From: Gemmataceae bacterium
GTDB lineage: Bacteria; Planctomycetota; Planctomycetia; Gemmatales; Gemmataceae
Direction: 5' to 3'
Length of the DNA stretch: 64,000 nt
Assembly: GCA_045802605.1 (NCBI GenBank)
Contig: JBJMQS010000037.1
Location: 59,420 to 123,419 of the forward strand
Of the stretch, positions 5,960 to 7,188 are shown piece by piece. The notes under the pieces are model-generated. The model worked only from the letters and a program-made list of their open reading frames with translations, had not been told where the DNA came from and ran no database searches. Each line of letters opens with the position of its first letter. Positions within the stretch are counted from its first letter, which is position 1. A program made the translations under genes and the position numbers.

Positions 5960-7156
5960 CTAGCGATGTGCTGGGACCAGTGGCGCGGTGAAATATTCGG
6001 CGAGTTCCGGCAAGATTTTCGGGATGAACAGGGCGGCACCGTAATGCGTCGTGTCGTACCAGCGGATCGTCGGACGCCCGGCAGCTTCCCAGAGCGCCTT
6101 TGCCGCCGAGGGCGGAACGATTTCATCCCGGCTAGCGCAGAGCATCAGCATCGATCGGCCGCGAAGATTGCCCGCAAGCGTGATGGGATCAACTGAAGCG
6201 AACACCTCTTTGATTTTTTCTTTGGTGCCGCCGGTCAATTCATACACCTTGCGATACGGCGCGGCTTGCGGATGATCGTAAAAGGCGTCCACGAGTCCGC
6301 CACCGCCGAGCAACACGGCGAGGCGCATGAATCGCGGATCAGTTTCCGCCGCGAGCGTGGCAATGAAGCTGCCGAGGCTCGTGCCCATGATGCCGAGCCG
6401 CGATGCGTCAATCTCGGGTCGAGATGCTAACCACGCCCCGGCGACGCGGACATCGAGCACGGTCTGCCGCACCGCGGCGATGGAATGCGGCACGTTAGTC
6501 GAAAGTAATCGCAGTTTGCTCCCGGGCGGACGTCGCGGGCCGTAGTAGGCCATCTGCACGAATAGCGCGCCGATGTTGTTCTGGGCCAAGTAGGTGGCGA
6601 ACCCGCGCGAAAGGCTCTGATCGCCGCCGGTGATATCGAGGATGACCACGCCGGGAAAGCGGCCGGGGCCTTTAGGACGATAGTACTCTGCGTGCACGGT
6701 GTTGTTTTGCGGCGTGTCCGAAGTTACTGGCGAGGGAAATGTCAGCCGATAGACCTCGATGCCGCTGGCCGGGAGGTCATGAGCCGGCGTCACGCGATAG
6801 TCGAAGGATCGCGCGTCAAGGCGGTAAAACTCGGGCAACTTGGATTGGTCAGCAACCGGTTCGTAGCGGAACATAGCGGGATCAATAGCGGGCAGCGCGG
6901 CATCGTTTATGAGCGCGGTCAGCAGGACGAGTGTCAGTAATATGCTACCGCCCCGGAGGGGCGCAGGACTGTAGCCACGGGTGGAGCGAGGTCGCCTGTG
7001 GCGACCGAGCGCAACCCGTGGGAGCCAATCGCAGTTGAACCAGCCCCGGAGGGGCGGAGGAGTGCAGACAGGTTCCTCCGCCCCTGCCGGGCGGGAAGAC
7101 AAAAATCCGTCTGACCACGGGTTGCGCTTGCCCGCCTGACGGCGGACGCGCTCCAC
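5960..7156 (-). CDS. Alpha/beta hydrolase (dienelactone hydrolase/S9-like) with N-terminal hydrophobic anchor/signal; the start is uncertain because the 5' end runs through a nested palindromic element
   Basis: GTSLGSF nucleophile elbow, HYGAALF near the C-terminus, signal-like ILLTLVLLTALINDAALPA. There is no in-frame ATG/GTG/TTG between the hydrophobic segment and the ATG at 7156. Confidence 0.55.
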   Translation of the reverse strand: MERVRRQAGKRNPWSDGFLSSRPAGAEEPVCTPPPLRGWFNCDWLPRVALGRHRRPRSTRGYSPAPLRGGSILLTLVLLTALINDAALPAIDPAMFRYEPVADQSKLPEFYRLDARSFDYRVTPAHDLPASGIEVYRLTFPSPVTSDTPQNNTVHAEYYRPKGPGRFPGVVILDITGGDQSLSRGFATYLAQNNIGALFVQMAYYGPRRPPGSKLRLLSTNVPHSIAAVRQTVLDVRVAGAWLASRPEIDASRLGIMGTSLGSFIATLAAETDPRFMRLAVLLGGGGLVDAFYDHPQAAPYRKVYELTGGTKEKIKEVFASVDPITLAGNLRGRSMLMLCASRDEIVPPSAAKALWEAAGRPTIRWYDTTHYGAALFIPKILPELAEYFTAPLVPAHR

Positions 7157-7188
7157 CCGTGGCTACATCCCTGCGCCCCTCCGGGGCG
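6949..7188. repeat. ~240-bp nested palindromic (MITE-like) element: outer 40-bp inverted repeats (6949-6988 / 7149-7188), inner 13-bp IR (gcgcaacccgtgg / ccacgggttgcgc), central hairpin, and three copies of ccccggagggg
   Basis: The outer arms cgccccggaggggcgcaggactgtagccacgggtggagcg and cgctccacccgtggctacatccctgcgcccctccggggcg are reverse complements apart from 2 nt. Confidence 0.55.

Follow-up and report, generated by a model that had tools for sequence, protein, structure and literature searches.

The TnpA transposases of IS608 and ISDra2, like the REP-associated tyrosine transposase (RAYT) that acts on the repetitive extragenic palindromes (REPs) of Escherichia coli, recognize hairpins in single-stranded DNA, cut at fixed distances and leave no target duplication. 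Besides REPs and REPINs, the latter being two inverted REPs able to form one long hairpin, REPtrons have reportedly been described (Nunvar 2010, Bertels and Rainey 2011, Di Nocera 2013), in which a RAYT transposase gene is flanked by inverted, GTAG-tagged REPs. A GTAG-tagged REP is defined by a GTAG or GTGG tetranucleotide lying 0-2 nt 5' of a hairpin, which has a GC-rich basal stem of 7-20 bp and optionally a second stem across a bulge of 1-3 nt (PMC6006769, PMC3733652), and GTAG repeats have already been reported in the PVC (Planctomycetes-Verrucomicrobia-Chlamydiae) superphylum (Di Nocera et al. 2013, PMC3733652). Within the Y1 transposases, TnpA_Y1 subclass 1.2 comprises proteins of ~148 aa that carry the motifs DH[IV]H, WQ and YIxxQxEHH and a tail of ~30 aa (Quentin et al. 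2018, PMC6006769), and it was described as lacking REPs or IS-like ends, as being of low copy number and as occurring mainly in Cyanobacteria and Bacteroidetes (PMC6006769). Acido-Lenti-1 (Rfam RF01687) was proposed to be a trans-acting small RNA (sRNA) of Acidobacteria and Lentisphaerae, and no link to a transposase was made (Weinberg 2010, PMC2864571). Here, we describe a 238-nt compound palindrome between an ArgZ-like gene and an alpha/beta-hydrolase gene, at positions 6950-7187 of a 64-kb stretch from one Gemmataceae metagenome-assembled genome (MAG), and we conclude that it very probably represents a non-autonomous copy, lacking the transposase, of a family of small IS200/IS605-type mobile elements found widely in Planctomycetota. 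The whole 64-kb stretch is referred to as the window, and statements about this genome cover that stretch only.

An initial annotation, made from the letters of the window, had described positions 6949-7188 as a nested palindromic element resembling a miniature inverted-repeat transposable element (MITE). A compound palindrome does occupy these positions, far beyond what chance would produce. The outer inverted repeat (6949-6996 with 7141-7188) spans 48 nt at 90% complementarity rather than the 40 nt first given, and the inner one (7000-7021 with 7115-7136) spans 22 nt rather than 13, so that both repeats were correctly recognized and both were measured too short. The central hairpin is present as predicted, with arms at 7040-7061 and 7074-7095, and the three ccccggagggg motifs that had been counted correspond to exactly three copies of the 14-mer GCCCCGGAGGGGCG, at 6950 and 7043 on the plus strand and at 7174-7187 on the minus strand; shuffled sequences contained 0.05 copies on average and none of 100 reached three. 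Folded as single strands, the two strands of the palindrome reach -192 and -197 kcal/mol (z = -13.6 and -15.6 relative to shuffles), and the minimum-free-energy fold of the element is one long hairpin, the structure by which a REPIN is recognized.

The block is a doublet in which a single three-hairpin module occurs twice, head to head and in inverted orientation, rather than one element inside another, and the description as nested is therefore abandoned. The left module, on the plus strand, begins with an outer hairpin, hp1 (GCCCC-GGA-GGGGC, 6950-6962), which is conserved at the outer edge of the 84 related units described below. It continues with a GTAG tag at 6971-6974, embedded in the sequence TGTAGCC that nearly all units share, and this tag abuts the stem of a REP-like long hairpin, hairpin 2 (6975-7021). 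The right module mirrors this arrangement on the minus strand, with hp1 at 7175-7187 (recognized from the inverted repeat and the motif copies), a GTAG tag at 7166-7163 abutting the stem at 7162, and hairpin 2 at 7115-7162, which was delimited by the inverted repeat and by a profile match. Both arms display an 8-bp foot, CCACGGGT/ACCCGTGG, topped by an internal loop of 3 nt and an apical helix that varies, and thus possess both the tag and the basal stem by which GTAG-tagged REPs are defined. Between the two modules lies the central hairpin (7040-7095), in which 12 nt separate the third hairpin, hp3, from its inverted partner and GGAGGA follows each of the two, as recognized by comparison with full-length relatives at loci L031 (6474-7200) and L013 (4349-5041). 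The recognition of the doublet as a whole rests on its inverted repeats, on a profile built from other genomes and on 19 doublets of the same kind found elsewhere.

These relatives were found by searching a collection of species-representative genomes with a 28-nt pattern, GCCCCGGAGGGGCGSAGGNNTGYAGMCA, drawn over the three internal copies of the terminal motif. The pattern matched 49 genome stretches, nearly all of them from Planctomycetota MAGs and mostly from Phycisphaerales, Tepidisphaerales, Planctomycetaceae or Gemmataceae, the taxonomic labels being those of the MAG bins. Relaxed matching yielded 84 distinct units with a constant order of parts: hp1, 8 nt, GTAG, hairpin 2, ~25 nt, the GC hairpin hp3 and then GGAGGA. 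Hairpin 2 of these units has the same 8-bp foot and 3-nt internal loop, surmounted in 71 of the 84 by an apical helix of at least 5 bp that occurs in 64 different sequences; no apical helix is present in the other 13. The varying apical helices show that the fold of hairpin 2, rather than its sequence, has been kept. Selection of the units biased the counts of pairing in the basal stem, and only the variation of the apical helix is taken as evidence. A few two-sided compensatory changes occur in hp1 among the 84 units (for example ACCCC/GGGGT and GTCCC/GGGAC), and the counts of G-T versus A-C mismatches in the stems were too few for a strand test to be informative.

Twenty convergent doublets with their GTAG tags on the outside, 186-316 nt in length, were identified, the window copy included. 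A profile built from the units outside the window matches the 64 kb only at 6946-7022 on the plus strand (E 2.3e-16) and at 7191-7113 on the minus strand (E 1.1e-15), and neither pattern search nor profile revealed a second copy of the element in the window; in other MAGs several units can occur within a single 8-kb locus, as against the one doublet in the 64-kb window. No direct repeats flank any of the 20 doublets. A TTC-type flank (TTC, TTTG or CTTG) abuts 42 of the 84 units and eight of the nine ends that lie 3' of a transposase gene, and could be a target or cleavage motif of the IS200 kind.

Variants of the basic arrangement were also observed. A minimal doublet of ~85 nt (L048, 894-979) consists of the two outer hairpins and their GTAG tags around a short perfect palindrome, CCACG-TCTATGAAGACCCGGGTCTTCATAGA-CGTGG, and lacks the inner hairpins. 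L049 has, at 4367-4640, a directly oriented pair of units at a distance of 246 nt whose 30-nt left flanks are identical, so that a unit and its flank have here been duplicated in tandem. In five contigs of one Planctomycetaceae MAG (L015, L029, L040, L052 and L056) the unit follows a near-identical 20-nt flank, cacgttcacaggccagaatc, and is continued by a CT-rich tract in place of the inner hairpin; since flank and tract are shared by all five, the module there is part of a larger or different repeat. Two further Gemmataceae (L036, 2869-3078; L016, 3140-3342) carry doublets between co-directional genes, at distances of 49 and 11 nt past the upstream stop codon. The doublet of L036 splits a conserved DUF1549/DUF1553 - DUF1501 gene pair, and a mechanically called open reading frame (ORF) for DUF1501 extends into the element, just as the hydrolase frame does in the window.

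The identity of the family is indicated by its full-length members. With an IS200 TnpA sequence as query, tblastn revealed a gene for a Y1 (HUH) transposase of 150 aa in 10 family loci, and in the eight loci where both end units could be located this gene lies between two inverted modules. The full-length elements span 693-962 bp and mostly ~0.7 kb, six of them measuring 693-739 bp and those of L011, L012 and L055 measuring 819-962 bp. As in the window, the ends of the full-length elements in L031, L013 and L058 are inverted copies of one module. In L031 and L013, the start codon of the transposase follows hp3 at a distance of 7-32 nt, and the inverted hp3 comes after the stop codon; the window element, with the two hairpins only 12 nt apart at 7040-7095, is what remains after removal of the transposase gene. 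The window copy is thus a MITE- or REPIN-like derivative, and the earlier suggestion of a MITE-like mobile element is borne out by a repeat family present in some 49 genome stretches, whose full-length members enclose a Y1 transposase between the same inverted ends.

The transposase itself matches Pfam Y1_Tnp (PF01797) with an E value of 1.5e-25 and the NCBIfam model transpos_IS200 (NF033573) at 76.5 bits (cut-off 55), and the solved structures closest to it are those of the ISDra2 and IS608 TnpA proteins. It contains the motifs DHVH, WQEGY and YIAGQHEHH and a conserved 30-aa tail, KKEDFKSELLRMLRLHEIEFDEQYVFD, and a comparison of motifs finds in it all four signatures listed for TnpA_Y1 subclass 1.2, to which it is assigned by these motifs alone. 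Its sequence thus places it on the IS200 side of the Y1 superfamily. We also considered whether the cognate transposase is a RAYT, and rejected this on account of a score of 16.9 bits on the NCBIfam model REP_Tyr_transpos, where the cut-off is 80, and the presence of YIAGQHEHH in place of YIxxNP. A tblastn search of the loci with an E. coli RAYT query gave no matches. In a large protein database 2,649 homologues were found at E <=1e-10, many of them 83-91% identical; their sources call them 'IS200/IS605 family transposase' in some cases and 'REP element-mobilizing transposase RayT' in others. Beyond Planctomycetota, the repeat occurs in a contig labelled Chloroflexi (L020), which carries several units in 8 kb, and in an Akkermansiaceae locus (L033), and a near-identical transposase bears the label Pyrinomonadaceae (P0134); the occurrence of the repeat outside the phylum indicates either horizontal spread or mis-binned contigs.

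In the window, the element has consequences for the gene that follows it. The relevant genes are all on the minus strand, in the order ArgZ-like gene, palindrome, hydrolase. The upstream ArgZ-like/LOR-SDH gene (7236-8474; Pfam ArgZ-like_C_2nd, E 9.9e-100) is co-directional and ends with a stop codon 48 nt before the element. The hydrolase body (5960-6874) is represented by the NCBI model P0001, which is 100% identical over 304 aa, matches Pfam Peptidase_S9 and ABHD18, starts with MFRYEP and has no signal peptide. Upstream of this start, reading of the frame and alignment with orthologues indicate that positions 6946-6875 encode an apparently orphaned signal peptide, S-ILLTLVLLTALINDAALPAIDPA, with no canonical start codon ahead of it. 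The hydrophobic core, ILLTLVLLTALI, is still encoded from 6943 downward and begins two codons from the edge of the element, which accordingly stands, as the initial annotation had it, in the place of the hydrolase start codon. That annotation had also taken the codon at 7156 for the only in-frame ATG. The codon at 7156 is GTG, and a TTG at 7102 and an ATG at 6874 are further in-frame candidates. A further ATG of this frame, at 7168, is separated from the gene by a TAG (7165-7163), a stop codon found by pattern search and frame reading to be part of the GTAG tag of the right module, and it is this stop that bounds the hydrolase frame upstream. No ATG, GTG or TTG occurs in the hydrolase frame between the element and ATG 6874.

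Comparison with orthologues suggests how the gene was organized. Nearly all of the 60 best homologues inspected are 311-330 aa long and possess a short signal peptide of the form M-x-x-hydrophobic that ends before the conserved FRYEP (N-termini such as MSIFLAVLLL, MSTALLLLLL and MYSLVLLM); a few of the 60 listed N-termini are truncated or start with V or L. Orthologues measure 311-318 aa. All 13 that were aligned start opposite window residues 72-74 (LLT of ILLTLVLL); their starts lie 1-3 residues before the hydrophobic core, and none has a counterpart of the 70 residues encoded by the palindrome. The homologous 70-aa extension that the initial annotation had proposed to look for is thus absent, the alignment indicates that such an extension is not ancestral, and the extension is very probably not a real feature of the protein.

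Of the two options first put forward, an odd N-terminal extension or a displaced native start, the latter is favored by circumstantial evidence from the junctions. On the minus strand these read ...CAG CGT ATG C[GCCCC ... GGGGC]GGT AGC ATA TTA CTG..., so that an ATG (7191-7189), the candidate native start, abuts the far edge of the element at a distance of one base. Removal in silico of 242 nt produces the N-terminus MS-ILLTLVLL and removal of 239 nt produces MGS- or MRS-ILLTLVLL, from ATG-(CGT/GGT)-AGC-ATA-TTA-CTG; both bring the ATG into frame, and the restored N-termini resemble the orthologue starts MSIFLAVLLL and MSTALLLLLL. Because the frequency of ATG in the window is only 0.014 per position, an ATG at this very spot that can be restored to frame is unlikely to be there by chance (~1-2% as a rough post-hoc estimate). 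These observations suggest that the insertion probably took place directly behind the start codon, or among the first codons, and so displaced the start of the hydrolase. The gene body, 72% identical to that of the best orthologue, is intact, and either the insertion was recent or some expression persists. The 90%-identity cluster of the hydrolase has a single member, so that a close relative is not to be expected. Starting at ATG 7191, an ORF of 85 codons passes through the element in another frame (window 6934-7191, minus strand) and stops at 6936-6934, 60 nt before ATG 6874, at which translational re-initiation is conceivable.

The element is not present at 10 orthologous hydrolase loci, one of which (L001) has the upstream neighbor in common with the window, as probably does another (L004), and none of them offers a true empty site. 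In L001 the order ArgZ-like gene to hydrolase recurs, and the slot between them holds a PhD/ParE toxin-antitoxin pair (2402-2994); L004 starts with the apparent end of an ArgZ-like gene, and an 80-aa ORF (65-307) lies directly upstream of its hydrolase gene. Because these two loci carry other inserts in the same place, the slot appears to accept insertions and looks like a hotspot. In the metagenome contigs L005 and L006 (1-1924), a Cas9-like gene (Pfam Cas9_a, HNH_4 and RuvC_III) adjoins the orthologous hydrolase.

Several observations weigh against an insertion of this kind. No transposase gene was found by tblastn within the 64-kb window, which bears on the mobility of the element in this genome, and neither flank of the window copy carries the TTC-type motif. 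If just the 238 nt delimited by the outer hairpins are excised, the ATG stays out of frame, and excision of 244 nt destroys it. An empty site was not found when the joined flanks of the 19 other doublets were compared with all fetched loci, in which they matched only transposase genes, and the ends of the element are accordingly not fixed to the base.

Among the alternatives, the one that survives best holds that the block is mainly a host regulatory RNA, acting as a terminator, an mRNA-stabilizing hairpin or an sRNA, its repeat nature being secondary. We regard this as unlikely, although the extreme stability of the fold on both strands speaks for it, as does its position past a stop codon (here by 48 nt) between co-directional genes, which it shares with the L016 and L036 doublets and which is the usual position of REPs (PMC3733652). 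Two relatives, at L037 7568-7613 and L050 5289-5334 (both on the minus strand), even score 42.3 bits on the listed candidate sRNA Acido-Lenti-1, above its gathering score of 37; the window copies reach only 18.6 and 17.8 bits. Consensus scans over 6700-7500 revealed neither a T-tract terminator nor a promoter-like site, an Rfam scan of the whole window gave no match at the gathering score (permissive thresholds returned only microRNA-like hairpin noise and the sub-threshold Acido-Lenti-1 matches), and no tRNA or tmRNA was detected in the window. The neighboring genes vary from locus to locus, and in 10 loci a transposase gene stands between ends of this same kind, which explains the conservation of these ends without a function for the host. 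A regulatory effect of the RNA is compatible with being a side effect of the insertion.

Slightly less probable is an insertion upstream of a gene that was left untouched, the hydrolase having always been translated from ATA 6943 or CTG 6937, or natively from ATG 6874. The hydrophobic core does begin with in-frame ATA and CTG codons, and ATG 6874 is the start chosen by NCBI. Translation from 6874 would discard a whole signal peptide that is still encoded intact, almost all of the 60 orthologues have a signal peptide led by methionine, and an ATG is found exactly at the other edge of the element.

It is improbable that the palindrome truly gives the hydrolase an N-terminal extension of 52 or 70 residues, translated from TTG 7102 or GTG 7156. 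In such a protein the old signal peptide, preceded by a positively charged tail, would serve as a membrane anchor. In favor of it, no stop codon interrupts the frame between 7156 and the hydrolase body, RHRRPRSTRG stands just ahead of the hydrophobic core, and by the positive-inside rule the catalytic domain would be kept outside. Some palindromic elements are in fact translated, for example RPE-1 of Rickettsia, whereas most REPs at annotated N-termini were concluded to be non-coding (PMC3733652). Beyond the absence of any extension in the aligned orthologues, the same DNA is found in non-coding contexts and beside a transposase gene, and GTG 7156 is buried in the 8-bp foot of a hairpin within the structure of -197 kcal/mol. 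Finally, the window comes from a MAG and assemblers can be misled by palindromic repeats, but an assembly artefact is hardly credible, given that the order of ArgZ-like gene and hydrolase on the two flanks matches the independent contig L001, that L004 starts with the apparent end of the same upstream gene, and that the architecture recurs in dozens of independent assemblies, including the 4.2-Mb contig L049.

A mechanism that would account for a mobile, transposase-less doublet can be proposed by analogy with the systems introduced above. The full-length form, as seen in the relatives, consists of the 150-aa Y1 transposase gene bracketed by two inverted three-hairpin modules; in the window copy the gene is absent and the modules are joined, giving the 238-nt compound palindrome. 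A transposase encoded elsewhere in the genome might recognize the GTAG-tagged hairpins in single-stranded DNA, cut at fixed distances and rejoin the element without target duplication, so that doublets lacking a transposase could be moved in trans. Such a doublet would have landed in the 44-nt region of spacer and start between the ArgZ-like gene and the hydrolase, after ATG 7191-7189 or within the first codons, and would have parted the start codon, now out of frame, from the signal-peptide codons. The hydrolase could then be made in any of three ways: from ATG 6874, without a signal peptide; from GTG 7156 or TTG 7102 inside a very stable structure, with a tail encoded by the element; or from the non-canonical codons ATA 6943 or CTG 6937. 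The RNA of the element would form a very stable hairpin between the two genes.

A mobile palindrome that separates the probable start codon from its gene explains why the hydrolase gene model is odd and annotated without a signal peptide, and the enzyme is likely to be mislocalized, poorly expressed or recently inactivated. ORFs that run into such elements are not to be trusted, as the same effect at L036 illustrates. Since elements of this kind are well known, the window copy is a new instance of an established kind; the family itself was not found described, a literature search with its sequence strings having returned only an unrelated primer match. Nor was a paper found that links subclass 1.2 or Acido-Lenti-1 to REP-like transposon ends, the coverage of the literature being incomplete in both searches. 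The results define a repeat family conserved across a phylum together with its transposase, tie an IS200-type transposase subclass said to be without REPs to REP-like ends, and offer a concrete origin for Acido-Lenti-1, an Rfam motif of unknown function. We regard these links as a modest new lead, useful for the annotation of Planctomycetota genomes and for the question of how REP/RAYT systems originated from insertion sequences, which changes no major concept. A broader proposal, which we put forward with considerable reserve, is that the family might form a bridge between IS200/IS605 and REP/RAYT, in which subclass 1.2 transposases bracketed by inverted GTAG REP modules seeded REPIN-like doublets throughout the phylum and Acido-Lenti-1 is their end module instead of an RNA gene in its own right.

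Compared with the described systems, the family combines features of several. As in MITEs and Rickettsia palindromic elements (RPEs), a small, non-coding palindromic derivative of mobile DNA has landed in or beside a gene. The window copy shares with MITEs its small size, the absence of a transposase, terminal inverted repeats and a related autonomous element; it differs in that no target-site duplication is seen and in that the enzyme presumed to move it is a single-strand transposase of the HUH type and not of the DDE type. Insertion of an RPE can add residues to a protein, whereas nothing indicates that the insert in the window is translated. The seeds of Acido-Lenti-1, read in reverse complement, consist of a hairpin, 8-9 nt, GTAG and a hairpin, the same layout as hp1, GTAG and hairpin 2, and this 'sRNA' may represent the end module of a repeat of the Y1-transposase or REP-like kind; the window copies fall below its threshold because their hairpin 2 has a long apical insertion.

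The likeness to REPs and REPINs is closer. In the window, GTAG lies directly 5' of a GC-footed 'long hairpin', the two units are inverted with their tags outside (an 'HH dimer'), and the element is intergenic, just past a stop codon. Each end of the family is, in contrast to a single REP, a three-hairpin module of ~110-145 nt, and its sequence, instead of being peculiar to one species, is conserved among classes of a phylum. Like REPtrons, the full-length relatives hold a Y1 HUH transposase between inverted units; unlike that of REPtrons, this transposase is not a RAYT, its tyrosine motif being YIAGQxEHH rather than YIxxNP. The passing of the IS200 equivalog model agrees with IS200/IS605 elements, as would the absence of flanking direct repeats at the doublets. 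In those elements the subterminal hairpins on the left and on the right differ from each other and terminal inverted repeats are lacking, whereas the ends of this family are long inverted repeats. Subclass 1.2 as described differs as well, for here its motifs occur in Planctomycetota, with REP-like ends and many derivative doublets. In the structure of its ends the family is closer to the TIRtrons of Di Nocera (2013) than to classical IS200/IS605 elements: TIRtrons are tyrosine-transposase (TIRYT) genes flanked by long, partly self-complementary terminal inverted repeats (TIRs), and TIR repeats also form dimers or clusters of moderate abundance, as they do in Acidobacteria (PMC3733652). As far as a comparison by description goes, the two part at one point, in that TIRs were described as unrelated to GTAG REPs, whereas each end of the present family contains one.

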